Shown here piece after piece: positions 1 to 31,734 of a stretch of DNA of 31,962 bases. Position 1 is the first letter of the stretch. Each line of letters opens with the position of its first letter. The notes under the pieces are model-generated. The model did not search any database, had not been told where the DNA came from, and saw only the letters and a program-made list of their open reading frames with translations. The stretch covers positions 1-31,962 of the forward strand of contig NZ_JAAHHD010000019.1 of the NCBI RefSeq assembly GCF_010672205.1, read 5' to 3'. Made by a program: the position numbers and the translations under genes. Source of the DNA: Moorena sp. SIO3A5 (lineage in GTDB: Bacteria; Cyanobacteriota; Cyanobacteriia; Cyanobacteriales; Coleofasciculaceae).

Positions 1-144
1 GCATCTTGGTGGAATGGGCATCTTGGTGGAATGGGCATCTTGGTGGAATGGGCATCTTGGTGGAATGGGCATCTTGGTGGAATGGGCATCTTGGTGGAAT
101 GGGCATCTTGGTGGAATGGGCATCTTGGTGGAATGGGCATCTTG
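1..144. repeat. 17-bp tandem repeat GCATCTTGGTGGAATGG, about 8.4 units
   Basis: Perfect head-to-tail 17-mers are visible from position 1. The three overlapping ORFs in the track are artefacts of this repeat. Confidence 0.9.
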
Positions 145-260
145 CCCGTTTCAATTCCCGGCAGGCAGGATGCCCACCCCACTCATATTCATTCCGCCCC
201 TCAGCAATGCCCCTACATGGATGTAGACTTGGAATGCAGTTAAAAAAATACCAATTAAAG

Positions 261-325
261 TAGGGTGGGCAAAGTTATCTTATCTAGAAGACTCATGTGA
301 ACCAAAATGTTTTTGCCCACCCTAC
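261..325. repeat. Hairpin repeat, family D (TAGGGTGGGCAAA ... TTTGCCCACCCTA)
   Basis: A 13-bp inverted repeat flanks a loop of about 38 nt. The same stem sequence recurs at 13219..13284 and 13944..14012. Confidence 0.7.
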
Positions 326-374
326 AAGCTACAAGCTTGTTTTTCAAATCAGTTTAGTGCGATCGCAAAATTCC

Positions 375-690
375 CCATCAGCCATCAGCCATCAGCGATC
401 AGCGATCAGCGATCAGCGATCAGCCATCAGCCATCAGCCATCAGCGATCAGCGATCAGCGATCAGCGATCAGCCATCAGCCATCAGCCATCAGCGATCAG
501 CGATCAGCGATCAGCCATCAGCCATTACCTATTACCTATTACCTATTACCTATTACCCATTACCCATTACCCATTACCCATTACCCATTACCTATCACCT
601 ATTACCCATCACCCATTACCCATTCCCCATTCCCCATTCCCCATTCCCGATTCCCGATTCCCGATTCCCCATTCCCCATTCCCCATCACC
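375..690. repeat. Heptanucleotide tandem arrays (CAGCCAT/CAGCGAT, then TACCTAT/TACCCAT, then CCCCATT/CCCGATT)
   Basis: Direct reading shows consecutive 7-mer arrays of the STRR-like type that run right up to the ATG at 693. Confidence 0.9.
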
Positions 691-692
691 TA

Positions 693-1115
693 ATGGAAAA
701 AGATTTATTATTCACTCGCCGCCACACTGGACAATTTATTTCTGAGCGACAATTAGTAGACCTTAAAAGTGTCAATCGTGACTTGGCAACAGCGACAGGT
801 TTAGATAATTTGGCTCAGGCAATTCTCAATCGCCTTTACACCCGTAAAGGGGAGCTTGCCGCTTTGGGACATCCTAATTATGGGTCACGGCTCCACCTGT
901 TAGTGGGTCAACAAAATAATAATCGTCTTCGCTCCCTTGCTAATTTGTATATCCGTGAGTGTCTAGCTCAAGAACCTCGGATAGAAGAAATCAAGGCCAT
1001 AGATTTTGAGCCTCCCTCTCGTCAGCAACGTTATACACTCGTAGCAACTGTAGTCCTTAAAGCTGTAGGCCAGGAAACACCCTTGACCCTGAGCTTTTCC
1101 CTACCTGGAGGGTAA
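693..1115 (+). CDS. GPW/gp25-family baseplate wedge protein (P2 W / Afp9-like), 140 aa
   Basis: The sequence LAQAILNRLYTRKGELAALGHPNYGSRLHLLVGQQNN...LAQEPRIEEIKAIDFEP matches the gp25-like pattern (tR.GER...P.FGs.L..l.......l...i..aL..wEPRi). The start is taken at the first ATG after the heptamer array, because the longer ORF from 297 is repeat-encoded. Confidence 0.75.
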   Translation: MEKDLLFTRRHTGQFISERQLVDLKSVNRDLATATGLDNLAQAILNRLYTRKGELAALGHPNYGSRLHLLVGQQNNNRLRSLANLYIRECLAQEPRIEEIKAIDFEPPSRQQRYTLVATVVLKAVGQETPLTLSFSLPGG

Positions 1116-1300
1116 TGGGTAATAGGTAATAGGTAATAGGTAATAGGTAATGGGTAATAGGTAATGGGTAATGGGTAATAGGTAATAGGTAATAGGTAAT
1201 AGGTAATAGGTAATAGGTAATGGGTAATGGGTAATGGGTAATGGGTGATGGGTAATGGGTAATGGGTAATGGGTAATAATGGGTGATGGGTAATGGGTAA
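1116..1300. repeat. Heptamer array GGTAATA/GGTAATG (reverse complement of CCATTAC)
   Basis: Tandem 7-mers begin immediately after the stop codon. The minus-strand ORF 1031..1309 is an artefact of this array. Confidence 0.9.
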
Positions 1301-1360
1301 TGAGTTCATTAGCTAGAAATTACACGCAAAATTTAACTTCACTAGCTGGAGCTTAATGAG

Positions 1361-3883
1361 ATGGTTTTTGAGAAAAAAGGCTTTGCTCAACTGTTCGAGG
1401 CCATGCAGAGTCGCACTCCTGACACCCTAACGGATTTTCAAGAAGGCAGTGTGGTGCGCACTCTATACGAGTCCTTTGCTTGGGAACTCGCCCTCCTCTA
1501 CGAGCAGATGCAACGGGTATATCTGTCTGGCTTTGTGGATACTGCCGAAGGCATTGACCTTGACAAAGTAGTTGCTATTTTAGGCATTAAGCGGGGAGAA
1601 CCGGATTATGCTACCGGAAAAGTTACCTTTACGCGAGATATCGGCATTGATGAAGATATTTTTATTCCCAAAGGTACACTAGTTACCACGGAAGATACCC
1701 AGGAGTCTCCCAAAAAAGCCTACGAAACCATTGAAGAAGGCAAGATTTCCAAAGACCAAACCACTGCCCAGGTGAGAGTCCAGGCTCTACGACGGGGTAA
1801 AACAGAGGAAACTGAAGCTGAAACTATTGTGGTGATGCCTCAGCCGGTAGTAGGTGTCAAGTCAGTTAATAATCAAGAAACCCTCCGATTTACCGGTAAA
1901 CTACAGGAGAGTGACGAACAACTGCGCCAAAGAGCCAAGCAAACCCTGCTGGCGACGAGTGGTGGTAATACTACCTCCATCCGGAATGCTCTGTTGAGTT
2001 TACCTGGGGTGCGGGAAGTGCAAGTTAGAGAAAACTTTCATGTTGCTAGGGGCAAGGTTAAGGTTACTAAGAGTGGCTCCCTTAGTGAAGAGCTTAAGGT
2101 TCCCAAAGGGACAACGATAAAACTCGAAATCTTAGGCACACAAACTAAAGACTATCACACCACTCAAGAGGTAATCCTCTCAGCAGGTGAAAATCAAGAG
2201 GTGGAAGTAGAGGTAGAGGCTGGGATTTCTGGAGCAGCTGGGGAAGCTGAGGCTGGTGCAACTTGGAAAGAGTTAGTGCTTAATAGCGTAACTCTTACGG
2301 TTAGCAATGAGCAGCCTATTTCACGGCAAGACTTTGGAATCATTGAAATATTTGTTGATGGCATTGATTTTAGAGATCTTGAGAAAGTTAGTCAGCTCAA
2401 ACAGGAAATTGACCGAGTTAAGGCAGCGGGAATCTACCCATTACTTAAACCGGCGACAGCAGTGAACGTTGATGGGGTATTCCAAATTGAACTCCAACCA
2501 GAACTGAAACTGTCTCCAGAGGAACGGCTACAGTTGGAAGAACAGGTACAGCAGACAATTATTTCCTACCTCAAAGAGCAGAAAATGGGTCAACCCTTGC
2601 TCATCTCTCAACTCACGAGTAAGATACTAGGCTGTAACGGTGTCAATGATTTAGTTGATTTTACCCTCACCACCAGTATCCGTAATTCAGCAGGTACTGA
2701 ACTGGCTCGCCAGCACTATCAATCCTCCGAAACGCCAGTGAAACGGCTAGAGGTGGATATCTTAGAAAAGTTCACCCCCCACTCGGTTCGCGTTGCCTCA
2801 GAAATCAAACCCCTTCCTGTAGCCTTACAAATTAAGGCTGAAGCACTAGATGATTCCAAACAACAGGCAATTGAACAAGCCCTACAACACTATTTTGCTG
2901 ACTTCAAACCATCCCAGGCAGTGGTTAGGAGTGAGATTAAAAAGAGTATTGAGACAATCACCACCATCGAAGCAATCAAGTTAATTCCCTCCTTCTGGCA
3001 ACCAGGGATTCCCTTTGATGGCGAAACCGTTAATGTCACGTTTGTGGAGCAGGCTCAGCTCAGTTCGGTATTTCTCTATGAGAGATTACTCACCATTACC
3101 GGAGCCTTGAAGCTGATTTTACCGGTTACAGTTACCCAACAAGAGAAGCAGCAAATTTACCAACAGGTTCGGGAGCAGGTTAGTGCTTATCTTGAGCAAC
3201 TCCAACCAGAAGAAAATATTAAACTTGAGCAGCTAGTTGAACAGGCAAAAACCGTAGAATCAGTGCTAGATATTAATTGGAAACTGGAGGATTTTAAGGT
3301 TCTGGATGAAGACAATAATGCTAAGGATATAATTGACCAAGAACAGTCGCAAATTCAGGTAAACAAATTTGAAAAAACTCAGTTAGATAGTCAGTTTGTC
3401 ATTGATAGTGATATCCAGGTTGTTGATGTTGCGATCGCTACTTTGAATTTAAGGCTAACTCCGGCGGTTGCAGTTCCCGAAACTGTTGATCATGCAAAAC
3501 TCAAGAGTGCTATGGAAGCAGCAGTTAAGAGTATTTTGACTCCCTCTCTCCAGCAGTTACCCAAACTAGCAGTGGGAGACAATCTGGATTATGACCAATT
3601 GAAAACTCTCCTGCTGGTACAGATCAGGACTAAGGCAGGAAATTTTGACCAGGAAACCCTTCAGAGTTTCATCAGCAATGGCCAAGCTTCACAGCAAAAT
3701 CAGAAGCATTTAATGGAGGCGCTCCGGAGCTTTCTCCGAGATTCTAACTACAGGATTGATGGGCTAGAACTCACAGCCAAGGGTAGCTCCTATCAGCAAG
3801 ATATTCCGATTGCGATTGTAGAACGGGCTGAGATTCAGTTACAAGAGTCGTCTAGTTTGTCAATTGTGATTGAAGATAAGTAA
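1361..3883 (+). CDS. Baseplate J-like protein (P2 gpJ / T4 gp6 / Afp11-like), 840 aa
   Basis: The N-terminus (FAQLFEAMQSRTPDTLTDFQEGSVVRTLYESFAWELALLYEQMQRVYLSGFVDTAEG...GKVTFTR) fits the Baseplate_J family pattern. It lies directly downstream of the gp25-like gene, as in P2 W-J. Confidence 0.8.
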   Translation: MVFEKKGFAQLFEAMQSRTPDTLTDFQEGSVVRTLYESFAWELALLYEQMQRVYLSGFVDTAEGIDLDKVVAILGIKRGEPDYATGKVTFTRDIGIDEDIFIPKGTLVTTEDTQESPKKAYETIEEGKISKDQTTAQVRVQALRRGKTEETEAETIVVMPQPVVGVKSVNNQETLRFTGKLQESDEQLRQRAKQTLLATSGGNTTSIRNALLSLPGVREVQVRENFHVARGKVKVTKSGSLSEELKVPKGTTIKLEILGTQTKDYHTTQEVILSAGENQEVEVEVEAGISGAAGEAEAGATWKELVLNSVTLTVSNEQPISRQDFGIIEIFVDGIDFRDLEKVSQLKQEIDRVKAAGIYPLLKPATAVNVDGVFQIELQPELKLSPEERLQLEEQVQQTIISYLKEQKMGQPLLISQLTSKILGCNGVNDLVDFTLTTSIRNSAGTELARQHYQSSETPVKRLEVDILEKFTPHSVRVASEIKPLPVALQIKAEALDDSKQQAIEQALQHYFADFKPSQAVVRSEIKKSIETITTIEAIKLIPSFWQPGIPFDGETVNVTFVEQAQLSSVFLYERLLTITGALKLILPVTVTQQEKQQIYQQVREQVSAYLEQLQPEENIKLEQLVEQAKTVESVLDINWKLEDFKVLDEDNNAKDIIDQEQSQIQVNKFEKTQLDSQFVIDSDIQVVDVAIATLNLRLTPAVAVPETVDHAKLKSAMEAAVKSILTPSLQQLPKLAVGDNLDYDQLKTLLLVQIRTKAGNFDQETLQSFISNGQASQQNQKHLMEALRSFLRDSNYRIDGLELTAKGSSYQQDIPIAIVERAEIQLQESSSLSIVIEDK

Positions 3884-4348
3884 TGGGTAATGGGTAATGG
3901 GTAATGGGTAATAGGTAATAGGTAATAGGTAATGGGTGATGGGTAATAGGTAATGGGTGATGGGTGATAGGTAATGGGTGATGGGTGATAGGTAATGGGT
4001 AATAGGGAATAGGTAATAGGTGATAAGTAATGGGTAATAGGGAATAGGTAATAGGTGATAAGTAATGGGTAATAGGGAATAGGTAATAGGTGATAAGTAA
4101 TGGGTAATAGGGAATAGGTAATAGGTGATAAGTAATGGGTAATGGGTAATAGGTAATAGGGATGCGCTGCATCAAGACAGGGAATCGGGAGCATGTCACT
4201 TATGCAGAACATTTGTACTAAATCTAATGGGTAATAGGTAATTGGTAATAGGTAATTGGTAATAGGTAATTGGTAATAGGTAATTGGTAATGGATAATGG
4301 GTAATTAGTAATTGGTAATTGGTAATTGGTAATTGGTAATTGGTAATA
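3884..4348. repeat. Heptamer arrays (GGTAATG/GGTAATA/GGTGATG, then GGTAATT) with embedded GGGATGCGCTGCATCAAGAC...GGGAGCATGTCAC motif at 4160..4200
   Basis: Direct reading. The minus-strand ORFs 3835..4212 and 3852..4199 are array artefacts. Confidence 0.85.
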
Positions 4349-4615
4349 GGGGGAGCATGTCACATTAGCCTAATATTTTTACCTGATCTATAGCCCCCTC
4401 ATGGGTAAAAGCCAAGGGTAGTGGTACACAATTCGTGATTTTAACTCCTGAAACCTTGACGTAACCCGTTGCCAAATCACTACATCTTTACCACTACCAA
4501 GCCAAGCTCATATGGTACTAAGTTTATCTGTTCTGCAACTAAGACCGGCTTATTGACAGAATTTTTGTTGTTTTGTCAAGTAGTTCAAAAGTTCGGCTTC
4601 TTTGACCTGCTCCCT
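4349..4615 (+). mobile_element. MITE-like element, family A (GGGGGAGCATGTCAC ... GACCTGCTCC), long copy
   Basis: The termini form an imperfect inverted repeat (GGAGCATGTC versus the reverse complement GGAGCAGGTC). The same termini and shared interior are found at 21580..21742 on the opposite strand. ORF 4469..4819 is an artefact. Confidence 0.6.
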
Positions 4616-4815
4616 ACCCATCACCCATTACCCATTACCCATTACCTATTCCCTATTACCCATCACCCATCACCCATCACCCATCACCCATCACCCATCA
4701 CCCATTACCTATTACCTATTACCCATCACCCATTACCCATTACCTATTACCTATTACCTATTACCTATTACCCATTACCTATTACCTATTACCCATTACC
4801 TATTACCTATTACCT
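4616..4815. repeat. Heptamer array CCATCAC/CCATTAC/CTATTAC
   Basis: Tandem 7-mers reach up to the ATG at 4816. Confidence 0.9.
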
Positions 4816-5184
4816 ATGACTAATTATCAGCTAACTATTCAACAAAGAACTGAAGATTTTGCGATTCGTGTAATCAAAGCTTACTCTGAACTCAACAAGA
4901 GACATTTTGATGATGCTGGAAAAGTATTAGCCAAACAGTTTCTTAGAAGTGGTACAAGTATTGGAGCCAATTGTGCCGAAGCTATTTATGCTCAATCAAA
5001 AAAGGATTTTATCTCCAAATATTCTATTGCTTTGAAAGAAGCTTCAGAAACACAATATTGGATTAGAATCATGGTTAAATCTCAGCTTGTTACTGAACAA
5101 AACTTTTCGCTGATGCAACAAGAAATTGTTACAATAATCAAAATCCTAACTTCCATAATCAACAAACTAAAATCAAAGGAATAG
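4816..5184 (+). CDS. Four-helix-bundle protein (23S rRNA intervening-sequence protein / Avd superfamily), 122 aa
   Basis: The motif FLRSGTSIGANCAEA and the overall pattern (RTEDFAIRVIKAY..L.......Q..RS..SI.AN.AEA......K.DFI.....A..EA.ET..W) are typical of TIGR02436-type proteins. The gene is flanked on both sides by heptamer arrays. Confidence 0.75.
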   Translation: MTNYQLTIQQRTEDFAIRVIKAYSELNKRHFDDAGKVLAKQFLRSGTSIGANCAEAIYAQSKKDFISKYSIALKEASETQYWIRIMVKSQLVTEQNFSLMQQEIVTIIKILTSIINKLKSKE

Positions 5185-5387
5185 GTAATGGGTGATGGGT
5201 AATAGGTAATAGGTAATGGGTAATGGGTAATGGGTGATGGGTGATGGGTGATGGGTAATAGGTGATAAGTAATGGGTAATAGGTAATGGGTGATGGGTGA
5301 TAGGTAATGGGTAATAGGTAATGGGTAATAGGTGATGGGTAATGGGTAATAGGTGATAAGTAATGGGTAATAGGGAATAGGTAATAG
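5183..5387. repeat. Heptamer array GGTAATG/GGTGATG/GGTAATA ending in GGGATGCGCTGCATC motif
   Basis: Direct reading. The minus-strand ORF 5173..5400 is an artefact. Confidence 0.85.
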
Positions 5388-5631
5388 GGATGCGCTGCAT
5401 CTTCAGGTGCGACCCGTGGCGAATTTAATAATTAGATGCGGAAAGCGCACCTAACAGGGAATCAGCTTCAAAGAATACTGTACCTCATAACTGTGATCAA
5501 CGCTATATTTACCATTAGAGCAAGCAATTACCCATGAGGGGCTATAGATCAGGTAAAACTATTCGGCAAAAGTGACATGCTCCCTCTATTACCTATAACC
5601 TATTAAATATAACCTATTAAATATAACCTAT

Positions 5632-5806
5632 CAGGGTAAGCGCAAGAATCAATAAACCGTGGCTTATTGAGAAAAAGACCGCGTCATTATCAACAACTTA
5701 ACTCTATTGCGAGTACAGTTCTACGAGATTATAGGGGTTTCGAGCCACGATCAACCGATATCCAGCCAATGCACATTATGGGCAATTTTTTCTTGCGCTT
5801 ACCCTG
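5632..5806. mobile_element. MITE with perfect 17-bp terminal inverted repeats (CAGGGTAAGCGCAAGAA ... TTCTTGCGCTTACCCTG), 175 bp
   Basis: The perfect TIRs were read directly. The element sits inside a CTATTAAATATAAC 14-mer array, and both flanks read TAT/TA, consistent with a short target-site duplication. Confidence 0.7.
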
Positions 5807-6052
5807 TATAACCTATTAAATATAACCTATTACCCATTACTTATCACCTATAACCTATTACCCATTACCTATAACCTATTACCCATCACCCATCACCCAT
5901 CACCCATCACCCATCACCCATCACCCATCACCCATCACCCATCACCTAATACCTATTACCTATTACCTATTACCCATCACCTATTACCTATTACCCATTA
6001 CCTATTACCCATTACCTATTACCCATTACCTAATACCTATTACCTATTACCA
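5807..6052. repeat. 14-mer and heptamer arrays (CTATTAAATATAAC; CCATCAC; CCTATTA)
   Basis: Direct reading. The arrays end 4 nt before the ATG at 6057. Confidence 0.85.
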
Positions 6053-6056
6053 AATC

Positions 6057-7991
6057 ATGGAAAAACGCGGCAAAACCACCAGCATCACCAGTCGATTTCC
6101 TCATTTCTATGACGGAGCCAATGTTGAGAGTTTGCTCTACCAATTTATTGATGTCTTTGGCTTCTTGCTGGAGTCAGGGGAAACCGACTTGCTCGCTGTG
6201 ATGCGTTCCCATCATGTGGATACCGCTGACAATGAAGGGTCTCAAGGCTTTATTGCTGCCCAAAAGGGAGATTTAGATCAACTTTTTGCTCTCTACTTAG
6301 AAGCGTTAGGGGGCACCTCTCAACTGGTAAAGGTAAGTCACCAGTTTAGTCCAGGGAGTATTAAAAATGTCAGTAACTTGGCCAAGAAACTTCATCAAGG
6401 CAGGGATGAACTGTCTCAGTATTTGCGTGATGCACTTGATCCGCATACCAAGACCCTTCTGGAGCGCTATCAGGTTGCCCAGGCTCAATTTAACCTAGAG
6501 TCTTTCAGGGATCTGCCCGGTCTAGCCATTCAGCTATTGGTTGCTACCGATCAACTCAGTCATTATCTCAAAATTCACTTGCCCCCAGAAACCCTGGAAC
6601 TGCTCAATCACTATGACGGTTTCCCCCCGCTGCCTGAACCCCTACAGCAGGGACTGGTGCAAACACTCAACCAACAGCTGGTTAATCCCTCCCTCTACCG
6701 GAAAAATAAGCCATACTTCCAAACCCTGACTCTCAGCAAAGCCGCTCAGCAATTGCTGGCACAACAGCCCATCGGGGAAGACCGACAACGTCTCAATCGC
6801 TTGTTGTTAGAAGCCGCCTATCCAGACTATATCAGCCCTAGCCATATTCCCACTCTGGCTGAGGTAGAGCAGGGGTTAATTAAGGGCTTGAATCACTCTC
6901 TACAAGACCCCTTACTCTACCAAAAAACTGATCAACCCCAATCCCAAACCCTTCCGGCAGGAACTGATCTGATTATCCAAAATCGGCAATTGCTGGAAGC
7001 AGCCTATCCCAATGAGATTGCCAAGAGTTATGCTCCTTACCGAGAGCGACTAAAAGGCTTGATTCAAATCCTCCGTCAAGGAGCTGCTACCAAGCCAGGG
7101 ATTATTGATTTGGTTGCTGCCAACTTGGGAATTTTAGGAGATTCTCCCGCCGCTCAAGCCGCCAAGAAAACCATTCAAATTCAAGAGTTCATGCCTCGGC
7201 TGACTCAGTTACATCCTCCTAATCAGCCAGAACATCGCTACTTGCTGACACTTCAGGAAGAATTTGAGGTCTATAACCCCAACCCGCAGCCAGAGGAAAT
7301 CGAAATTTTCCTGGCAGTTCAGCCAACTCTGCCTGTGGTATTATACAATCTGCGAATTGTTAACTGCGATACTGAAGCATCGGTTGTTTACAAGGGAAAA
7401 GTAGAGGCCAATGATGTATTGTCCTTTCGAGAGGATATCGTTGATGTTAACGGTAAACCTTATGCAACAGAAGGAACGCCCCTACTACCAACCCACACCT
7501 CTCGCTGGCGGCTGGAAGCAGAGTTAGCTGAGGGGTATCCCCTGGCACGATTTGACCAACAGCGCTTTGATCAAACCACCTTTGTCTTGAGTGAAACCGT
7601 CGCCTCTCTGGAAATGAGATTCTACAAACTCACCCCAGGGGTGTTTGATGTAAAAATTCCTTGGGATATTCCCGGCTTTACTGATAAGTTTCAGGAAGCA
7701 GGGGATCATCCTCGTCATCAAATTGCTGGAATTATTGACAAGGTTAAAGCCGCTGGTGTTTTGGGGATTATTACCTATCAGAAGCGCTTTCAGGAAACTC
7801 ACGAGATAGTAGCAGAGTTAACTGTTGAACGTTCTCCGTTTAGGGAAGAACATCTTGCCGAAGATCACCTTACTATTAGTAGTAAGCAGGTTCCCTATCC
7901 AGAGGGAGTAGTCCACGAAATGTCGGATAATCTGCTTACTTGTGGAGTATTTGACTATACTGGCTTTGATAGCGGGAATCGTTTTGCTTGA
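6057..7991 (+). CDS. Putative baseplate protein in the P2 gpI / Afp12 position, 644 aa
   Basis: The ORF is long and uninterrupted. The call rests mainly on synteny: it follows the W-like and J-like genes and precedes the H-like fibre. I cannot confirm sequence-level homology from memory. Confidence 0.45.
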   Translation: MEKRGKTTSITSRFPHFYDGANVESLLYQFIDVFGFLLESGETDLLAVMRSHHVDTADNEGSQGFIAAQKGDLDQLFALYLEALGGTSQLVKVSHQFSPGSIKNVSNLAKKLHQGRDELSQYLRDALDPHTKTLLERYQVAQAQFNLESFRDLPGLAIQLLVATDQLSHYLKIHLPPETLELLNHYDGFPPLPEPLQQGLVQTLNQQLVNPSLYRKNKPYFQTLTLSKAAQQLLAQQPIGEDRQRLNRLLLEAAYPDYISPSHIPTLAEVEQGLIKGLNHSLQDPLLYQKTDQPQSQTLPAGTDLIIQNRQLLEAAYPNEIAKSYAPYRERLKGLIQILRQGAATKPGIIDLVAANLGILGDSPAAQAAKKTIQIQEFMPRLTQLHPPNQPEHRYLLTLQEEFEVYNPNPQPEEIEIFLAVQPTLPVVLYNLRIVNCDTEASVVYKGKVEANDVLSFREDIVDVNGKPYATEGTPLLPTHTSRWRLEAELAEGYPLARFDQQRFDQTTFVLSETVASLEMRFYKLTPGVFDVKIPWDIPGFTDKFQEAGDHPRHQIAGIIDKVKAAGVLGIITYQKRFQETHEIVAELTVERSPFREEHLAEDHLTISSKQVPYPEGVVHEMSDNLLTCGVFDYTGFDSGNRFA

Positions 7992-8200
7992 GAGGGAGTA
8001 GGGAGTAGGGAGTAGGGAATGTAGAATTAAGAATTAAGAATTAAGAATGTAGAATGTAGAATTAAGAATGTAGAATGTAGAATGTAGAATTAAGAATTAA
8101 GAATGTAGAATTAAGAATGGTTAATCTAACTTCTAACTTCTAACTTCTAACTTCTAACTTCTAACTTCCCGATTCCCAATTCTAAATCCTAAATTCCCGA
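7992..8200. repeat. Heptamer arrays (GGGAGTA; GAATTAA/GAATGTA; CTTCTAA)
   Basis: Direct reading, starting immediately after the stop codon. Confidence 0.9.
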
Positions 8201-8209
8201 TTCGACATT

Positions 8210-8296
8210 GGTGGTGCGTTACGGTGCGGGCTGTAACAAAACTGGCTCTCGGTGTTGAAGATGAGGGCAAGCCCGCCCCTAACACACCCTACGCAC
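8210..8296 (+). repeat. Dispersed repeat family B (GGTGGTGCGTTACGG..GCGGGCT ... GCCCGCCCCTAACACACCCTACGCAC)
   Basis: Related copies are embedded at 8417..8500, at 13821..13906 in reverse orientation and at 19534..19617 in reverse orientation. The ends are an imperfect inverted repeat. Confidence 0.6.
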
Positions 8297-8390
8297 TAAC
8301 TTCCCGATTCCCGATTCCCGATTCCCGATTCCCGATTCCCGTTCCCCTCCTGGGAGGGGTTAGGGGTGGGTTCCGATTCCCAATTCCCAA

Positions 8391-8525
8391 GGGTGCATCT
8401 CCTAAAAGCTGTTTGACACGGTGGTGCGTTACGGGGCGGGCTATCCAAAGCCTGGCTACGAGGCGGAAAATGAGGCCCCCCCTGAAGCACCACTAGCAAC
8501 TTTTTTACAAATATGAGATGCACCC
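8391..8525. mobile_element. MITE family C with 11-bp perfect TIRs (GGGTGCATCTC ... GAGATGCACCC), carrying a family-B core
   Basis: The TIRs were read directly. A second full copy lies at 21467..21570, with solo ends at 17811..17835 and 21822..21846. ORF 8224..8496 is an artefact. Confidence 0.65.
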
Positions 8526-8700
8526 ATTCCCAATTCCCCATTCCCAATTCCCCATTCCCCATTCTTCATTCTTCCTTCTAAATTCCCCATTCCCCATTCC
8601 CAATTCCCCATTCCCCATTCCCCATTCCCCATTCCCCATTCTACCTTCTAAATTCTAAATTCTAAATTCTAAATTCTAAATTCTAAATTCTAAATTCTTA
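8523..8700. repeat. Heptamer arrays (CCCCATT/CCCAATT; AATTCTA)
   Basis: Direct reading. The arrays end 2 nt before the ATG at 8703. Confidence 0.9.
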
Positions 8701-8702
8701 AT

Positions 8703-9197
8703 ATGAAAATTGCCGAAAGCCTCGACATGAAAGGTAGGTTAACTATCCAAAAATATAATTCTCAAGCTCAGCTGGTGGATGAAGTTAAAGCTGACAACTC
8801 GATTGTTTATACAGGGCGGGAATTAGTGGCTAAGTTATTTACTAATCAAAAAATTGATCCGATCCGCTACATCGCAGTAGGTACTGGCAACACCGCTGTT
8901 AAGCCAGCTAATGATACCCAACTGGGACAGGAGGTGTTTCGTAAACAAATTAAAAATTTTGACCCCTCCAAAGATTTAATAGAGACTGGAGAAGATGACG
9001 GTAAAAAATGTCAAATTCGGTTATCTGTAGACCTAGATTTTGGAGAACCAAAAAGTCAGCCAGTTGCTTTAACTGAGGCAGGTTTGTTCAATAGCCTAGA
9101 AAAAGGAAAGGGAATCATGTATAATAGAGTAACCTTTCCTCCAATTACCAAGAGCGAAAATTTTAAGTTAACTCTCGTCTGGGAAATTTTGTTTTAG
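8703..9197 (+). CDS. Tail-fibre N-terminal (baseplate-attachment) domain protein, P2 gpH N-terminus-like, 164 aa
   Basis: The stretch IVYTGRELVAKLF...IRYIAVGTGNTAVKPANDTQLGQEVFRKQI...VALTEAGLF parallels the P2 gpH N-terminus (ITTAGAAKLAAA...VGITTMAVGDGGGKLPVPDAGQTGLIHEVWRHAL...RELGLYD). Its position after the I-like gene supports the call. Confidence 0.55.
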   Translation: MKIAESLDMKGRLTIQKYNSQAQLVDEVKADNSIVYTGRELVAKLFTNQKIDPIRYIAVGTGNTAVKPANDTQLGQEVFRKQIKNFDPSKDLIETGEDDGKKCQIRLSVDLDFGEPKSQPVALTEAGLFNSLEKGKGIMYNRVTFPPITKSENFKLTLVWEILF

Positions 9198-9210
9198 GGA
9201 TTGGCTAACG

Positions 9211-9747
9211 ATGGTTCAAGAGTTCACTGCAACCAAAAAAAAGCAAGGGGATTTGATTTGTTCAGCTGACTGGAATGCAGCCATGGACGAAGTCACCCGT
9301 TTAGGGAAATCAAAACTAGACAAAGAAAGTTTCAGAGGACCACTGACAATTCAGGAATCCTTAACTGTGAATGGAACCCTGAAATTAGAAAAGGGGGTGG
9401 CAGTGGCTCAATTCTCCAGTACCCTAAATGGCACAAGCAATTCCGTGCCGACTGAGAGTGCCGTAAAAACCTACGTCGATAGTAAACTCAACAGCCTAAA
9501 AGGAAGCGACAGCCTGAAGTTGACTGCAAAGAGCCTGACAGTTAGTGACGCTCTGACAGTAAACGGAGATTTAACGGTCTCCAGTAAAGGAAAACTTTCT
9601 TTTGAAAAAGGTACAACAGTAGATGGATTTGTTACCAGTATCAACCCAAACGGAAAATCTAACTCTACTGTAGTACCAACTGAACAAGCAGTGATAGCTT
9701 ATGTCGAAAGTAAACTAAAGGAGCTAGGTTTCCTAGATTCACAGTAA
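9211..9747 (+). CDS. Tail-fibre shaft module with phage tail-fibre repeats, 178 aa
   Basis: It contains repeated S/T-rich ...VPTExAVxxYVxSKL motifs (NSVPTESAVKTYVDSKL; TVVPTEQAVIAYVESKL). The N-terminus (DWNAAMDEVTRLGKSKL) is paralogous to the N-terminus of ORF 10060. Confidence 0.55.
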   Translation: MVQEFTATKKKQGDLICSADWNAAMDEVTRLGKSKLDKESFRGPLTIQESLTVNGTLKLEKGVAVAQFSSTLNGTSNSVPTESAVKTYVDSKLNSLKGSDSLKLTAKSLTVSDALTVNGDLTVSSKGKLSFEKGTTVDGFVTSINPNGKSNSTVVPTEQAVIAYVESKLKELGFLDSQ

Positions 9748-10052
9748 TAGGTAATGGGTGATGGGTAATGGGTAATAGGTAATGGGTAATGGGTAATGGG
9801 TAATGGGTAATGGGTGATGGGTGATGGGTAATAGGTAATAGGGGGAGCATGTCACTTATGCCTAATATTTGTACATTATCTATAGCCCCCGGGTAAAAGC
9901 CAAGCTCATATTCCCGATTCTCAATTCTCAATTCTCAATTCTCAATTCCCAATTCCCAATTCCCAATTCTCAATTCCCAATTCCCAATTCTCAATTCTCA
10001 ATTCTCAATTCTCAATTCCCGATTCCCGATTCCCGATTCCCGATTCCCGATT
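9748..10052. repeat. Heptamer arrays (GGTAATG; CAATTCT/CAATTCC/CGATTCC) with a truncated family-A MITE end at 9841..9911
   Basis: Direct reading. ORFs 9665..9931 and 9869..10054 are artefacts. Confidence 0.85.
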
Positions 10053-10059
10053 AAAATCC

Positions 10060-11346
10060 ATGACCACAGGATTTAACCCAACACCCAAACAACCAGGCGA
10101 TCCATTCTACGCCAAAGATTGGAATGAGGCGATCGCAGAAATTGCTCGTTTAGAAAAAACCAAACTAAATCAAGAAGCCGATGGTAGCATCAAAGGTCCA
10201 CTAACGATTGAAGAAGCCCTAAAAACTAGTGAAACTACTCCCCCGACACTCCAAATTAACGGCCCATTGAAATTACAATCGGACGTGACAGTCAGGGAGT
10301 TTTCCAGTGATGGAACTCTTGCAGATAACAGCAATACTGCTGTACCAACTGAAAAGGCGGTAACAACCTATGTCACCAGTGCCGTGGACAAGTTCCAGAA
10401 AAGCCGAGACAACTATGCTCAGGTGACAAGCCAAGGTGGCACGGTGAAAAATTTACACCTCAAGGGGAATCTCCAACTGCCACAGGGGTGTAAAGTACAA
10501 CAGTTTGCTGATACTATAGACACCAGCAGAAAGTCTACCCTAGTGGTGCCAACTGCACAGGCGGTGATTAAGTATGTCAATACTACTCTAGAAAAATATA
10601 GTTTTAGTTTAGAGAAAATTAAATTAGCTGATGGTGTATTTTTGGAATTGGTACAGCTCAAGGCTGGTAAATTCATGATGGGTTCGCCCGGAGATGAGTC
10701 TGGTAGAGATAGTGACGAAGGCCCCCAGCATCAGGTAACTGTACCAGGGTTCTGGATGGGGAAGTATCAAGTAACCCAGCAGCAGTGGCAAGCCGTTGCT
10801 GGTTATGAACAAGTCAAAACAGGGATTAGCACTAACCCCTCTAACTTTAAAGGCCAGTCTCGACCAGTTGAGAGGGTAACCTGGCATGAAGCCAAAGAAT
10901 TTTGTGCGCGACTCAATCAAAAATTTAAGGGTCAACTCCAGGGTCGAAAATTCCGTTTGCCCAGTGAGGCGGAATGGGAATATGCCTGTCGAGCAGGTAC
11001 GACAACTAGATATTACTTTGGTGACAATAGCTCACAACTGGGAGACTATGCTTGGTACGATGGTAATTCTGGTAGCAAAACTCATCCAGTAGGACAAAAA
11101 AAACCGAATAAATGGAAATTGTATGATATGATGGGTAATGTATGGGAATGGTGTGAAGATACCAGGCATGGCAACTATGATCATGCCCCAGTAGACGGCA
11201 GTGCCTGGTTTGATAATGATAATGATAATCGGCTGCTGCGCGGTGGCTCTTGGCACCACAATTCGAGGGGCTGCCGCTGTGCCGATCGCAACTACTCGCC
11301 GGACCCCAGGTACAGCTCCTACGGTTTCCGGGTAGTTTGTTCCTAG
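10060..11346 (+). CDS. Tail-fibre protein with C-terminal FGE-sulfatase (C-type lectin fold) domain, the DGR variable protein, 428 aa
   Basis: The N-terminal third carries tail-fibre repeats ([18 protein letters not shown]; [18 protein letters not shown]). The C-terminal part has hallmark FGE-sulfatase motifs ([10 protein letters not shown]...[15 protein letters not shown]...[16 protein letters not shown]...[13 protein letters not shown]...LRGGSW). The last roughly 40 codons are the VR. Confidence 0.85.
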
Positions 11347-11351
11347 GCGTG
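11229..11351 (+). other. DGR variable repeat (VR), 123 bp, spanning the stop codon
   Basis: It aligns with the TR at 12864..12989. There are 13 substitutions, every one at a TR adenine, plus a single 3-nt (AAC) length difference. Both repeats end in the shared block TTCCTAGGCGTG, which I take as a candidate IMH. Confidence 0.9.
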
Positions 11352-11413
11352 GACTCTTCTTTGCTCTTTCGCCCTTTTGCCCTCTACCCTTTTATTTATT
11401 TTATTTTACCCTT

Positions 11414-11437
11414 TTCCGCCTGCGGCGGAATTTTTTT
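11414..11437 (+). terminator. GC hairpin TTCCGCC-tgc-GGCGGAA followed by T7
   Basis: It is a perfect 7-bp stem followed by TTTTTTT, 63 nt downstream of the VR end. It fits both a rho-independent terminator and the stem-loop usually found 3' of DGR VRs. Confidence 0.6.
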
Positions 11438-11443
11438 CTGGAA

Positions 11444-11791
11444 ATGAGTGATTTACCAATTATCCAAAGAACCTACGAGCTGATTAAGTGGTATGTTCCC
11501 ATTCTAAACCGGTTGCCAAGAGACCATAAGTTCATCCTAGGAGATAGAATCATTTCAGGACTCTATGACCTACTCGACAATCTGATTGTAGCACGGTATG
11601 CCCAGGAAAAACTGACAATTTTAAAAAATCTTAACAGTAGACTAGACATCCTGCGCCACCAAACCCGACTCCTGCTGGACTTCAAGCTGATTAAAACTGA
11701 GCGCTACGAGTACGCCAGTAAATTGCTCAACGAAATTGGCAAAGAGTTGGGAGGCTGGATTAAACAACAACAAAGACAAGCAAAAAAATGA
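11444..11791 (+). CDS. avd: DGR accessory variability determinant (Avd), 115 aa
   Basis: The sequence [30 protein letters not shown]...[12 protein letters not shown] matches the bAvd pattern. The stop overlaps the RT start codon (ATGA). Confidence 0.85.
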
Positions 11792-12846
11792 AACGCTACG
11801 GCAATCTTTGGCACCAAGTGACGGAATTTAGCAACTTACTAGCGGCTGCCCGTCAAGCCCAGAAAGGTAAACGGTTTCGTCCTGATGTGCTCGAATTCAA
11901 TTATAACCTAGAACAACAACTGAGTCAATTACAAGCGGAACTAATCTCCCAAACCTACCACCCTGGTGCCTATAAAACCTTTGAAATCAAGGAACCCAAA
12001 CCTCGCTTTATCTCAGCTGCTCCCTACCGCGACCGAGTCGTTCACCATGCTCTGTGCAACATCATTGTTCCCATTTTCGAGCGCAGTTTCATCGGTGACT
12101 CCTACGCTAACCGGGTCGGTTTTGGTACCCACCGTGCCCTCCGCCGTTTTACCAAATTTGCCCGCTCTAGTAACTATATTCTTCAGTGCGACATTCGCAA
12201 ATACTTTCCCAGTATAGACCATACCATCCTCAAATCCTTGCTCCGTCGCCAGCTCAAATGTCGGGAAACCCTCTGGTTACTTGACACCATTATTGACAAT
12301 AGCAACAAACAAGAACTCATCATTGACTATTTCCCCGGTGACGATTTACTTTCCCCCCTCAACAGGCGACGAGGCTTACCCATTGGCAACCTCACCAGTC
12401 AGTTGTTTGCTAACGTCTATCTCAACGGCTTCGACCACTTTCTCAAAGAACAAGTCAAAGCAACTAAATATATCCGCTATGTGGATGATTTTGCCCTATT
12501 TGCTGATAATCGCACCTTTTTAGCATCAGCCAAACTAGCGATAGAAGACTATCTTGCCAACCTCAGGCTCAAACTTCATCCCATCAAAACTCAGCTATTT
12601 GCCACCAAACAGGGAGCGAATTTTCTCGGCTTCCACATTTTGCCAGATTGCCTCCGCGTCCGTACTGAAAATCTGCGCAGGGCAAGACGCAGGCTGCGAC
12701 GTATGTTGGTAGAATACAAACAAGGTAAAATCACGCGCCAGGAAGTATCCCAATCATTGCAAAGCTGGTTTGCCCATCTAGAACATGGTGATACTTGGCA
12801 GTTGCGCCAACAGATATTTAGTTCTCTCCCTTGGGTGAGAAGCTAG
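11788..12846 (+). CDS. DGR reverse transcriptase, 352 aa
   Basis: RT motifs are present: [17 protein letters not shown]; the DGR-typical [16 protein letters not shown] (I/LGxxxSQ); and [12 protein letters not shown] (YxDD). The gene lies between the avd gene and the TR. Confidence 0.93.
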
Positions 12847-12863
12847 AGAAGGGACAGGCACTT

Positions 12864-12989
12864 TCGGCTGCTGCGCGGTGGCTCTTGGAACAACAATTCG
12901 AGGAACTGCCGCTGTGCCAATCGCAACAACAACTCGCCGGACAACAGGAACAACAACAACGGTTTCCGGGTAGTTTGTTCCTAGGCGTG
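12864..12989 (+). other. DGR template repeat (TR), 126 bp, AAC-rich
   Basis: It lies 18 nt downstream of the RT stop and is identical to the VR except at adenines, apart from one extra AAC. ORF 12831..13034 is an artefact of the TR. Confidence 0.9.
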
Positions 12990-13218
12990 CGCTCTTGGTG
13001 TGCCAGAACTTGTGGATGGAAATTCACAGGGTGAGCCATCTCCAAGAGTCCAGACCTGTTCCTGGGAGATCGGTGACGGTCTTGCGAAAATCAAACTAGG
13101 TCTGGTAGCTTGGTAGGCTCTCAATCCGAAGAGTTGCCCGACCTTCTACTAGTTGACAATAGGTAATGGGTAATGGGTAATGGGTAATAGGGAATGGGGA
13201 ATGGGGAATGGGTAATAG

Positions 13219-13284
13219 AGATCTTGTAGGGTGGGCAAATGGACATGATTGCTGAGGAAATTGCCAAACTCTGATTATTTGCCC
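13219..13284. repeat. Hairpin repeat, family D, copy 2
   Basis: GTAGGGTGGGCAAAT...ATTTGCCCACCCTAG with a 13-bp stem. Confidence 0.7.
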
Positions 13285-13343
13285 ACCCTAGCCTAGGGAA
13301 TGCGATCGCCTTGGTATACTTAAGGACAAATCAGGAAAAAACA

Positions 13344-13616
13344 GTGAACTCTATCCCGTTAAAACAATTTAAGACTAACATCCAAGACTTGATCAAAAAA
13401 GTCATTACTCAGCATATTGCCCTCAAAATTACCGATCCCAATCAGGGAGACTTTATTATTATTAGTGCCGAAGATTGGGAACAACAACAAGAAACCTTGT
13501 ATGTTTTACAAAATACCAATTTAATGGAACAGATTAACTGTTCTCAAGCTACCCATTCCCAAAATAAAGGCTACTCTCCCAATCAGCAAGAACTAGATGA
13601 GATCCTTAGTATTTGA
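13344..13616 (+). CDS. Phd/YefM-family type II antitoxin, about 90 aa
   Basis: The block DFIIISAEDWEQQQETLYVLQN matches the YefM core (V.I.s.edyesl.ETlyll). The start is taken at a GTG that follows AGGAAAAAACA, and the TTG at 13311 in the ORF track is less likely. No toxin ORF lies downstream. Confidence 0.65.
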   Translation: MNSIPLKQFKTNIQDLIKKVITQHIALKITDPNQGDFIIISAEDWEQQQETLYVLQNTNLMEQINCSQATHSQNKGYSPNQQELDEILSI

Positions 13617-13660
13617 GGGCAAAACTTGGGAAATTTACGAAGACCTTAGGCAAAAAGACT

Positions 13661-13812
13661 AATGGGTAATGGGTAATGGGTAATGGGTAATAGGTAATAG
13701 GTAATAGGTAATAGGTAATAGGTAATAGGTAATAGGTAATAGGTAATAGGTAATAGGTAATAGGTAATAGGTAATAGGTAATAGGTAATAGGTAATAGGT
13801 AATAGGTAATAG
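13661..13812. repeat. Heptamer array GGTAATG/GGTAATA
   Basis: Direct reading. It is followed by a family-B copy at 13821..13906 and a family-D hairpin at 13944..14012. Confidence 0.9.
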
Positions 13813-27749: not shown

Positions 27750-29135
27750 CATCCTCCCCGGCATGAATGCGCGGGGATTCCAAACCTCACGATTTGGGTT
27801 TCCTCTTTCTGTTTCTTCGAGCTGGTTTACTTGGTTGAGTTTCCCCACTCAAGTAGTGACCAATCTCTCCAGAGGCGTTAATTTCCGTCTGCCCGACGGT
27901 ATTTGATAGCTGTTTAAGTGCAGATTTAAGAATGTTGTTCGCGTAGCGTCGGCTTCGCCGAATCGCAGCGTTATGATCCCGATCTGCTAGATACCCACAG
28001 TGAGGACACTCATGAGTTCTAGTGCTAAGAGTTTTGATAACTTTCTCCCCACAATTCGAGCAATTCTGGGAAGTATATGCAGGCTCAACAGCAATAACTG
28101 GAACTCCATAAATTCTGCCAAAATACTCTAACCATTCCCTAAATCTGTACCAAGCAGCATCCGAAATCGATTTAGCTAGTTTGTGGTTCTTAACCATGTT
28201 GCGTATCCGTAGGTTTTCAATCGCAACCAAGTCGTGAGACCGGATGACGTGTTGAGCTAATTTACAAACCCAATCGTTACGTCTGCGTGACACCTTTAGA
28301 TGTGCTCTACCTAATCGGTTTCTGGCTTTTTTTCGGTTTTGACTTCCTTTTTGGGTTCGAGATAATCGACGTTGCAGCTTCTTGATTCTACGTTCGTCAC
28401 TCCTGAGAAACCGAGGATTGTCTATCTGTTCGCCAAATGAATCAGTGTAGAAAAAGTTAAGACCTACATCTAGCCCGGTCTGTTTTCCTGTTAGCTCTTT
28501 TGTCTCCTCTCTAGTCTGGTCGATCAAAAATTGTGCGTAATACCCATCATGCCTTCTAATCACTCTTACTCGTTTAATTTGTTTGAGTTGATAGAAGTGG
28601 AGATCTCGACTCCCCCAAAGTTTGAACGTACCCGATTTAAACTTGTCTGAAAAGGTTAAATAACGCCTATCTTCAGAGAGTTTCCATCCGGAAGTCTTGT
28701 ATTCGACAGATGCTCGAACTTGGTATTTCTTAAACTTTGGGAAACCTTTCTTGCCAGGTATCTTTTGCTTGCAATTTCGATAGAACCGTTCAATTGATGC
28801 CCAGGCTCTTTCCGCGTGCGCCTGTCGAGCCATCGAGTTGAGCTTGCTTACCCAGGGGAACTCTGGGTTGTCTGATAGCACTTTGCAGTAGCTATAGGCA
28901 TCGTTGCGACTTTTGATTTGACCATCCATCCACGCTCTGACAATGCTGTTGCGAACAAACAACCCTGTACGGATAGCTTCATCAAGCCGACCATACTGGG
29001 ATTCCGTTCCTTGCAGCTTCATTTCGTAGATGATCATGATTATCGCTATTGCTCACGATAAATATGATAGCACAAAGTTAACCGTCCTAGAAGGACGGGG
29101 CTTTAGACCCGCTTTTTTTTTGGTAAATTTTGCAG
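27750..29135 (-). mobile_element. IS200/IS605-family tnpB-only insertion splitting the SDR gene
   Basis: The tnpB ORF together with a subterminal hairpin (CCGTCCT-aga-AGGACGG, 29082..29098) lies between the two SDR fragments. The boundaries are approximate. Confidence 0.55.
27787..29037 (-). CDS. tnpB: TnpB (OrfB) RNA-guided endonuclease, second divergent copy, 416 aa
   Basis: The N-terminus MIIYEMKLQGTESQYGRLDEAIRTG is followed by GLDVGLNFFYTDSFGE and AIENLRIRNM and by a zinc finger CSNCG...CPHCG. It is clearly a different lineage from the copy at 23706. Confidence 0.9.
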   Translation of the reverse strand: MIIYEMKLQGTESQYGRLDEAIRTGLFVRNSIVRAWMDGQIKSRNDAYSYCKVLSDNPEFPWVSKLNSMARQAHAERAWASIERFYRNCKQKIPGKKGFPKFKKYQVRASVEYKTSGWKLSEDRRYLTFSDKFKSGTFKLWGSRDLHFYQLKQIKRVRVIRRHDGYYAQFLIDQTREETKELTGKQTGLDVGLNFFYTDSFGEQIDNPRFLRSDERRIKKLQRRLSRTQKGSQNRKKARNRLGRAHLKVSRRRNDWVCKLAQHVIRSHDLVAIENLRIRNMVKNHKLAKSISDAAWYRFREWLEYFGRIYGVPVIAVEPAYTSQNCSNCGEKVIKTLSTRTHECPHCGYLADRDHNAAIRRSRRYANNILKSALKQLSNTVGQTEINASGEIGHYLSGETQPSKPARRNRKRKPKS

Positions 29136-29444: not shown

Positions 29445-30142
29445 TTGCTACAATGCCTATAGTTGAAAATAAGTAAAAGTTAAAAACAAGCAAGCATCCG
29501 ATGCTAATATGCGTCGCTAAACCCACTGAGACTGAACTTAGCAACAGTAAAATTAGTCACCGTGAAGTTAGCCACCGTGAAAATTTGCTCCCACGCAACG
29601 GTTATCCGTAGGCAGTGCAAGATTGGTAAAGACTACCTACAAATAATTGATGGCAACAGCCTTCTCCCCGACCTTAGCTATCGGACTATTGGCTAAGGGA
29701 GTCAGAAAAGCGGCAATTTGCCATTCAGTCTGGTGGATAACTGGTTAAGATATTTCTCGCCGGTTTGTTGCGGAAACTTGGTAAGAATCGGTGGTCGAAA
29801 TATCCTTCAAATCATTCTGGCATCAGTTAATCAATCCGTAGCCAGAATGGGTGTTGATGTAGAGCATGGTTGGTACCCTCCTTGAAATGAGTATTAACCA
29901 GAAACTAAGCCATAAGCCTACAGTAACAACAGCAACTCTCAACTGCAACATATATTAACATAAAACTATTGTTTTTTACATTTATATACGAAAAATTCAT
30001 ACATCAATTAGGATTAAACAGTTATTTCATATTGGTTCAATCTCTTATCAAATATAGGATTGAGTCGTTTTATTCCTGAATTTTGTTTTTTTGTTCAATA
30101 AGAAAAAATATGAGAAAATTAACAAAGTGTTCAGGTAGATAG

Positions 30143-30254
30143 AAAAAATCCGCTCATCCTAGACCTGGCTAGTCGTGGGATCAGCGGGTCATTTTATTCA
30201 AGTAGATTAAAAATTTCCGCTCATCCTAGACCTGGCTAGTCGTGGGATGAGCGG
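30143..30254 (-). terminator. Two tandem copies of a hairpin (CCGCTCATCC-N17-GGGAT(C/G)AGCGG), each followed on the minus strand by a T-run
   Basis: The copies are at 30150..30187 and 30217..30254, with 10-bp stems. On the minus strand they are followed by TTTTTT and ATTTTT, about 150-250 nt downstream of the frr stop. Confidence 0.6.

Positions 30255-30401: not shown

Positions 30402-31734
<1,333 letters not shown>

Follow-up and report, generated by a model that had tools for sequence, protein, structure and literature searches.

An intact diversity-generating retroelement and its probable target, the fibre of a predicted headless contractile-tail cluster in the cyanobacterium Moorena

We analysed a stretch of 31,962 nt (the window; contig NZ_JAAHHD010000019.1, positions 1 to 31,962) of Moorena sp. 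SIO3A5. Moorena is a filamentous marine cyanobacterium. The window contains genes for baseplate and fibre proteins of a contractile tail, followed by a diversity-generating retroelement (DGR) at the end of the last fibre gene; the genes of this tail module and all elements of the DGR are on the forward strand. The proteins encoded by the baseplate J gene, the gene for a 644-amino-acid (aa) baseplate protein, the fibre gene, and the reverse transcriptase (RT) gene are identical to the GenBank entries EGJ32632.1, EGJ33175.1, EGJ33171.1, and EGJ33169.1, respectively (Moorena producens 3L and a sister assembly). An earlier sequence-only reading had proposed that the DGR diversifies the fibre of a P2-like tail module belonging either to a tailocin or to an extracellular contractile injection system (eCIS). 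The features that it listed were found at its coordinates, with scores far above chance, and two ORF assignments are corrected below.

The predicted tail fibre and DGR target has a length of 428 aa and is encoded at 10060..11346. It begins with a conserved attachment region, continues as a shaft that carries VPTExAV repeats, and ends in a TvpA-like C-type-lectin/FGE-sulfatase domain. Residues 196-426 match the FGE-sulfatase family (E=2.4e-54), and the best solved relative of the lectin domain is the DGR variable protein TvpA of Treponema denticola (2y3c, E=5.7e-35), with an alignment that runs through the variable region (VR) and includes the segment RGGSW...C..R...SP..R....GFR..C. The placement of the VR in a C-terminal lectin domain of this type, as first proposed, is thus confirmed. 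TvpA itself is a surface lipoprotein, whereas in Moorena a phage-fibre attachment domain and a shaft precede the domain in the same polypeptide.

The open reading frame (ORF) in front of the fibre gene, 9211..9747, encodes a lectin-less paralogue of 178 aa that aligns to residues 1 to ~190 of the fibres. It is 41% identical to the 428-aa protein and 52% identical to the fibre of Moorena sp. SIO3A2 (locus L002), the closest relative with 97% nucleotide identity, and it ends where arrays of short tandemly repeated repetitive (STRR) sequences begin. The motif VPTExAVxxYV occurs twice in each of the two ORFs, with a match to the tail-fibre family phrog_9851 (6.8e-9). These repeats had been noted before; the two ORFs, however, are not pieces of one fibre gene, and a single split gene was rejected because they are paralogues, each with its own start. 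Probably, 9211..9747 is the remnant of an earlier fibre.

Both fibre ORFs open with the same module (..PGD....DWN.A..E..RL....GPLTI.E.L..). The N-terminal fibre motif (PGDLILSADWNAAM..RL..GPLTIQEAL) is also present in a Nostoc protein of 329 aa, in a 623-aa protein from another cyanobacterium that ends in a Peptidase_S74 fibre chaperone, and in a Microcystis protein of 1491 aa. All of these proteins occupy the same slot after a gene for a 164-aa protein; the N-terminal ~60 residues are common to them, and the distal ends differ. The presence of this N-terminal module in the slot after the 164-aa gene across genera shows the DGR target to be the fibre of the tail cluster. Among the genera compared, the lectin/DGR tip was seen only in Moorena. 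The 428-aa fibre is only 58-63% identical to its Moorena orthologues, compared with 87-95% for J, gp25, and the 644-aa protein (96-100% for gp25), and this high divergence is as expected for a specificity determinant.

The gene order of the DGR cassette is target-avd-RT-TR. The VR (11229..11358) spans the last ~39 fibre codons plus 12 nt. It is followed by avd (11444..11791; Pfam bAvd 4.8e-21, PHROG “Avd protein of DGR” 2.9e-26), the gene for the 352-aa RT (11788..12846; RVT_1 8.3e-22, with IGNLTSQ and YVDD motifs), and the template repeat (TR; 12864..12996), which contains 31 adenines and 13 AAY codons. TR and VR show 15 mismatches, 13 of which are at TR adenines, while the other two are at the extreme 3′ end. 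This end of a DGR is where the initiation of mutagenic homing element (IMH) and its TR counterpart (IMH*) normally differ. The DGR of the window is therefore intact, with avd, RT, TR, and adenine-specific differences between TR and VR. Between VR and avd lies a GC-rich 7-bp hairpin followed by T7 (11414..11430, forward strand), the top-listed and strongest of three forward-strand terminator-like sites in 1..13700, which probably serves as the terminator of the fibre operon and/or corresponds to the hairpin that lies 3′ of the VR in DGRs.

Compared with the TR, the VR lacks exactly one AAC codon (AAC AAC AAC in the TR, AAC TAC in the VR). The length difference could have arisen either by an indel after the last retrohoming or during cDNA synthesis or integration. 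The orthologous VR of L002 has the full TR length and differs mostly at TR adenine sites, and the VRs differ between strains. Together with truncated avd stubs in L002 and in a further Moorena locus, L024, the L002 pattern suggests past use of the DGR in these lineages. The DGR itself was already catalogued: Table S1 of Vallota-Eastman et al. 2020 lists the RT EGJ33169.1 as non-degraded and the target EGJ33171.1 as “CLec” for Moorea producens 3L (PMC7517822). In the 2011 assembly of that strain, J and the fibre are on different scaffolds.

The baseplate genes precede the fibre genes. The first encodes a gp25/gpW-like sheath initiator of 140 aa (693..1115; Pfam Sheath_initiator 3e-9, GPW_gp25 7e-6, PHROG baseplate protein 1.6e-20), which is 96-100% identical to its Moorena orthologues and has a dN/dS value of 0.27. 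The second encodes an intact Baseplate J/gp47-like wedge protein of 840 aa (1361..3883; Baseplate_J 1.7e-23, phrog_6 baseplate wedge 2e-61). Both genes had been assigned correctly by the sequence-only reading. The gpW/gp25 and gpJ/gp47 homologues are adjacent, in the order of P2 and Mu; the label “P2-like” stands for no more than the generic order of Mu, P2, and PBSX. In the PDB, the sequence of J matched the baseplate protein of phage phi812, Triplex 1a of phiCD508, and TRI-2 of diffocin, and not Afp11 or Cis11; against the Afp11-type model TIGR02243 it scored 22 bits, with a cut-off of 155.8. In the M. bouillonii clade, codon 687 of J has changed in frame from CAG to the amber codon TAG (positions 12059-12061 of the M. 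bouillonii locus L001, also in L021, L023, L024, and L026). The change splits J into ORFs of 686 and 146 aa and represents a read-through site or, alternatively, a pseudogenising mutation common to the clade; the window and L002 keep CAG.

The conserved protein of 644 aa (6057..7991) is in the position of gpI/gp48/TRI-1; its N-terminal half is helical, and its C-terminal half is rich in beta structure. It had no sequence-family match, and PDB sequence searches gave nothing usable; its family contains 86 “hypothetical proteins” from cyanobacteria, Chloroflexota, Longimicrobium, and Bacteroidota. The model of the protein resembles monocin FtbK and diffocin TRI-1. We read it as a putative baseplate wedge partner in the gpI/gp48 position, which retains the baseplate role first suggested for it, while homology to gpI is not claimed. 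A scan of viral contigs with this family yielded one provirus call of 14 kb, which contained the same tail cluster only.

The next gene (8703..9197) encodes a predicted baseplate-periphery or fibre-adaptor protein of 164 aa (phrog_5417 9e-23, and an N-terminal match to the tail-fibre family phrog_4176, 1.7e-6). The protein belongs to a stand-alone family of ~160 aa with 562 representatives, and its fold matches baseplate-hub and fibre-adaptor domains; a PDB sequence search gave nothing usable. The Moorena protein is 57-61% identical to those of Nostoc and one other cyanobacterium by tblastn, or 60-64% by global alignment. This ORF had been taken for the first fibre ORF, with a gpH-like N-terminal attachment domain. 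The similarity to baseplate and fibre proteins holds, but the gpH N-terminal domain was not supported (no gpH family match, a stand-alone family, an adaptor-type fold), and the protein is separate, highly conserved, and stand-alone, not a first fibre segment. A metagenome scan with the 164-aa family found four short loci, with an RT in none of them. All four ORFs upstream of the fibre genes thus show baseplate or fibre similarity. No transmembrane segment was found in 16 cluster proteins, as no window of 19 residues reaches a Kyte-Doolittle value of 1.6.

The rest of the system is visible in orthologous loci of about eight Moorena assemblies. At least seven Moorena assemblies, M. bouillonii among them, have the gene order rlmN (reverse strand), sheath, tube, a 109-aa ORF, an acidic protein of 435-572 aa, a DNA_circ_N-like protein of 194 aa, a tape-measure-like protein of 1185 aa, a gpD-like hub, spike V, ORFs of 171 and 80 aa, gp25, J, a 651-aa protein, the 164-aa protein, and the lectin fibre, followed by DUF2887 and host genes. 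The sheath is identified by Phage_sheath_1 and phrog_279 (1.7e-51). The cluster sits at one chromosomal site in at least seven Moorena assemblies. In the relatives, rlmN, glycosyltransferase, and sulfotransferase genes are upstream of the sheath, and host genes come after the fibre. Read outwards from gp25, the orthologous Moorena loci contain the spike, hub, tape-measure-like, tube, and sheath genes, and then rlmN. Capsid, portal, and terminase genes, which by the sequence-only reading would have contradicted it, were not found in these loci, nor were integrase or AAA+ ATPase genes, and seven loci had no AAA domain in any called gene between rlmN and the host genes. The same cluster, again ending in host genes, is present in Nostoc and Microcystis.

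For the source strain, the accession numbers of M. producens 3L are informative. They run from the tube (EGJ32621) via the hub (EGJ32626) and V (EGJ32627) to J (EGJ32632), and in the re-annotation V (OLT56301) adjoins J (OLT56300). The missing numbers can be accounted for by the gene order of the intact clusters plus one ORF, corresponding to positions 1-263 of the window. This numbering suggests that the cluster is contiguous in the source strain.

Several genes of the cluster have features of their own. The sequence identity of spike V (L001 6220-7074 and homologues) amounts to 70-84% among Moorena, Okeania, Microcystis, Dolichospermum, Leptolyngbyaceae, and Adonisia, an unusually high degree of conservation for a structural gene of phage origin. 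Among 50,697 phage records, no close homologue of J or V was found: the best matches were 30-33% over the N-terminus for J, and 28%, to a haloarchaeal virus, for V. The high conservation of V and the lack of close phage homologues suggest a long-standing domestication of the cluster. Strains differ in the length of the acidic protein encoded between the tube and DNA_circ_N-like genes (L004 9392-10714 and orthologues); STRR heptamers are translated in frame within it (SAISHQPSAISHQ..., PLPITHY...), generating a coding tandem-repeat length polymorphism. In Adonisia turfae (L038 11992-12975), the cluster ends inside J, which is cut short at 328 aa, and ferredoxin and photosystem genes come next; this is another independently eroded copy.

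The surroundings of the tail module show signs of rearrangement and insertion. A conserved non-coding segment at 236..352 (forward strand) is 88% identical to L001 8161-8270 and forms the left edge of synteny with the intact clusters, where its counterpart lies directly after the 80-aa ORF that follows spike V. Positions 1-235 match L002, not the intact clusters, and contain a 17-nt tandem repeat inside an ORF with a helix-turn-helix (HTH) fragment of TnpB. The repeat is perfect, covers positions 1-144 with 8.5 copies of GCATCTTGGTGGAATGG, and marks the end of synteny with the intact clusters; in L002 the enclosing ORF begins with the HTH fragment of TnpB (IS605 OrfB). In L002, pyrH-frr is directly upstream of this ORF and gp25 (5391-7437), and in the window the same frr-pyrH pair is inverted, at 29916..31962. 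The L002 arrangement is consistent with a single inversion of ~30 kb of a window-like order with ends near TnpB sequences, the candidate ends being the TnpB fragment of the left flank and a site near the TnpB gene at 27787..29037.

An insertion of 2.2 kb (3884..6056) lies behind J, in front of the 644-aa gene; it consists of STRR arrays and a gene of the 23S rRNA intervening sequence protein (IVP) family (4816..5184; Pfam 23S_rRNA_IVP 1.9e-22). It is absent from L002, in which only 89 nt separate J from the next gene, and no strong forward-strand terminator-like site was found within it. The IVP product is a four-helix-bundle relative of Avd, and its gene is thus a second Avd-like gene 6 kb from the DGR. 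The Moorena genome is rich in STRR arrays with 7-nt units, and such arrays occupy every intergenic gap of the region. Scans of the window for tRNAs and Rfam families gave no matches, and a scan for consensus promoters was uninformative (33 found versus 25 expected).

Downstream of the DGR, only host or mobile genes are present, i.e. genes for a Phd antitoxin, two DUF2887 proteins, a response regulator, DUF192, GrpB, two TnpB proteins, acs, a short-chain dehydrogenase (SDR), frr, and pyrH. The housekeeping genes acs, pyrH, and frr had been recognised before, and the reported absence of capsid, portal, and terminase genes from this part of the window was confirmed and extends to replication and integrase genes. 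The antitoxin ORF (Phd/YefM type, 13311-13616) is located just after the TR with STRR arrays on both sides, and no toxin partner was recognised nearby. The DUF2887 genes are at 14134-14961 and 15049-15804. DUF2887 adjoins the fibre/DGR end in every Moorena locus (e.g. L002 17543-19993), is directly beside the truncated avd stubs in L002 and L024, and in M. bouillonii one copy is inserted between the 80-aa ORF and gp25; DUF2887 genes may have mediated the deletions of the DGR. The SDR gene is split (29103-29444 and 27141-27848) by a TnpB/OrfB_IS605 gene of 416 aa (27787-29037).

With moderate confidence, we favour the view that the window carries the distal half of a chromosomally encoded, headless, tailocin-like contractile particle, and that the tip of its fibre is the target of the adjacent intact DGR. 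The gene complement fits a headless contractile tail with a phage-like order of the Mu/PBSX type, rather than an eCIS of the antifeeding prophage/Photorhabdus virulence cassette (Afp/PVC) type, a contractile injection system with thylakoid anchoring (tCIS), or a prophage. The assignment to the tailocin-like class follows from the phage-like order, the phage and tailocin matches of J, its low score against TIGR02243, and the lack of an ATPase and of transmembrane anchors. All ORFs of the window are full length, and dN/dS values of 0.27-0.56 for all five genes, compared with three orthologues, indicate purifying selection. Of the two options offered by the sequence-only reading, the tailocin thus fits, and the eCIS of the Afp/PVC type does not.

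R-type tailocins (pyocin R2, diffocin, monocin) and PBSX-like defective tails share with the Moorena cluster the headless set of sheath, tube, tape-measure-like protein, hub, spike, gp25, J, wedge partner, and fibre, with J and the 644-aa protein resembling tailocin components as described above, and with the fibre as the most divergent gene. In contrast, no holin/endolysin or PrtN/R-type regulator was recognised in the Moorena cluster, a DNA_circ_N-like gene precedes the long tape-measure-like gene, and the wedge partner is a 644-aa protein with a large helical domain. Furthermore, the host is a cyanobacterium, specificity would be varied by a DGR and not by exchange of fibre and chaperone, and the Moorena system is not known to kill. 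The contractile systems of the eCIS type (Afp, PVC, and the metamorphosis-associated contractile structures, MAC) and the tCIS of Anabaena (all3313-all3327) are also headless and have a contractile sheath and tube, a gp25/J-type baseplate, fibres, and, in part, a location on a cyanobacterial chromosome. Unlike them, the Moorena cluster lacks the Afp15 ATPase, the Afp16 cap, a downstream ruler of the Afp14 type, a VgrG fusion, and transmembrane anchors.

Several observations weigh against a working, DGR-diversified particle. The cluster is split by rearrangements in L002, L021, L025, and L027. The DGR is missing from every other Moorena locus examined, avd stubs being left behind, and only the window keeps the RT. 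The one-codon difference between VR and TR means that no retrohoming has taken place since that indel. The amber codon in J is common to five assemblies of the M. bouillonii clade, the 2.2-kb insertion separates J from the 644-aa gene, STRR arrays lie between the genes, and one fibre paralogue is truncated and has no lectin. With Pfam, PHROG, and NCBIfam, none of the cluster ORFs was recognised as belonging to a lysis cassette or as a regulator or effector gene, several small ORFs being unannotated. In addition, the dN/dS range indicates only moderate constraint, and contiguity in the source strain is deduced from accession numbering, not from upstream DNA: the full tail set was found in orthologous Moorena loci, and the source genome directly shows gp25 through fibre only.

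All but the last two of these points would also be expected if the locus were an eroding relic, i.e. if the tail cluster no longer made particles and the DGR and fibre were intact but functionless, or the soon-lost remnant of an ancient tailocin or prophage. We regard this explanation, which survives best among the alternatives, as rather unlikely. The intact J and RT motifs, the full-length ORFs, and dN/dS values below 0.6 for all genes speak for maintenance of the locus, as do the retention of the cluster across cyanobacterial orders with a very high identity of V and the accession order, which suggests a contiguous cluster in the source strain.

Alternatively, the particle might not be released and might act within the producer, e.g. 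in stress-induced cell death, with the lectin binding an internal or envelope ligand. Such roles are known for cyanobacterial and actinobacterial contractile injection systems (CIS), e.g. the Anabaena tCIS and the Streptomyces CIS (PMC8894136, PMC10066040), and both the missing lysis cassette and the vertical conservation of the cluster in multicellular cyanobacteria would be compatible with them. However, none of the proteins has a transmembrane anchor of the kind found in Cis13 of the tCIS, and the gene order, including the tape-measure-like protein, is phage-like. Moreover, the fibre tips vary by genus, and diversification of the lectin by a DGR points to an external ligand that changes, so that we consider an intracellular role quite improbable.

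The lectin protein could also be an ordinary cellular DGR target with a surface or signalling function that merely lies beside a tail remnant. Most cyanobacterial DGR targets are kinase, caspase, or leucine-rich repeat (LRR) proteins with a CLec domain and without a phage link, the target discussed here is listed simply as “CLec” (PMC7517822), and its best PHROG match is labelled “kinase”. We judge this explanation very improbable, as the N-terminal 190 residues form an attachment domain and shaft shared with the last cluster gene of other genera, the Peptidase_S74 fibre among them, the shaft has tail-fibre PHROG matches, and the 428-aa protein has no signal peptide, transmembrane-like hydrophobic stretch, kinase, or other extra domain.

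An eCIS of the Afp/PVC type or a complete DGR-bearing prophage is the least credible possibility: Moorena genomes reportedly contain eCIS and are rich in predicted toxins of such systems (PMC11297309), and every contractile system has gp25 and J domains, but the eCIS was rejected on gene content and order (AAA+ ATPase, cap, and DUF4157 effector genes missing from the cluster and its flanks, a tape-measure-like gene upstream of the baseplate, gpD and V as separate genes) and on the PDB matches and TIGR02243 score of J, and the prophage because no head, packaging, or integrase genes occur in any locus and host genes adjoin both ends, rlmN at the sheath and others at the fibre. As the cluster lacks Afp-type markers, the eCIS and toxins reported for Moorena (PMC11297309) probably belong to a different locus, and the cluster described here represents a separate lineage.

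If the favoured interpretation of a tailocin-like particle with a DGR-targeted fibre is correct, the following mechanism can be envisaged. The sheath-to-spike genes, which would lie just upstream in the source strain, and the genes of the window would jointly build a soluble particle. Trimeric fibres would be held on it at their conserved N-terminus through the 164-aa adaptor and the wedge of J and the 644-aa protein. Avd and RT would copy the TR RNA into cDNA with random bases opposite adenines, and the cDNA would replace the VR, so that the 13 AAY codons (~15^13 combinations) could re-specify the ligand face of the lectin. Subpopulations would thereby make particles of new binding specificity, and binding would trigger sheath contraction and puncture of the target cell. 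We tentatively put forward, as a possibility, that M. producens makes such a self-retargeting tailocin, which would belong to a domesticated, pan-cyanobacterial, non-Afp lineage and have a fibre lectin that is continuously re-specified by a chromosomal DGR.

The closest functional parallel is the DGR of Bordetella phage BPP-1 (Mtd-Avd-TR-Brt), in which Avd, RT, and TR also lie beside the target, substitutions are adenine-specific, and the VR is part of a C-type-lectin fold at the C-terminus of the distal tail-fibre protein, whereby the receptor specificity is rewritten. BPP-1, however, is a replicating phage with a head and a short non-contractile tail, whereas the Moorena carrier would be a chromosomal, headless contractile-tail cluster; the lectin is of the Mtd type in BPP-1 and of the FGE-sulfatase/TvpA type in Moorena, and the Moorena cassette has the order target-avd-RT-TR.

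DGRs retarget phage fibres and vary cellular surface or signalling proteins. Tailocins and eCIS, to our knowledge, change their specificity only by swapping fibres. We found no paper linking the two in the literature on DGRs and tailocins, eCIS, or CIS, including a 2026 catalogue of eCIS receptor-binding domains. The DGR had been catalogued, and its link to a tail particle is new: the target listed as “CLec” in the survey of 2020 (PMC7517822) is shown here as the fibre of a phage-tail-like cluster. A DGR acting on the fibre of a headless contractile particle would unite DGR retargeting with tailocins in a built-in programmable weapon or delivery device, which is of relevance for engineered tailocins and PVCs. 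The assignment also corrects the published view that no cyanobacterial DGR can be assigned to phage-derived elements. If the proposed self-retargeting tailocin is real, its DGR would be the first one known in the service of a non-replicating bacterial weapon and not of a virus or a cell-surface protein, and a clonal population of filaments could release particles of many specificities against changing competitors, grazers, or partners. More generally, the results point to an uncharacterised contractile-tail cluster that is conserved in Moorena, Nostoc, Microcystis, Adonisia, and others, including bloom-forming, toxin-producing cyanobacteria.

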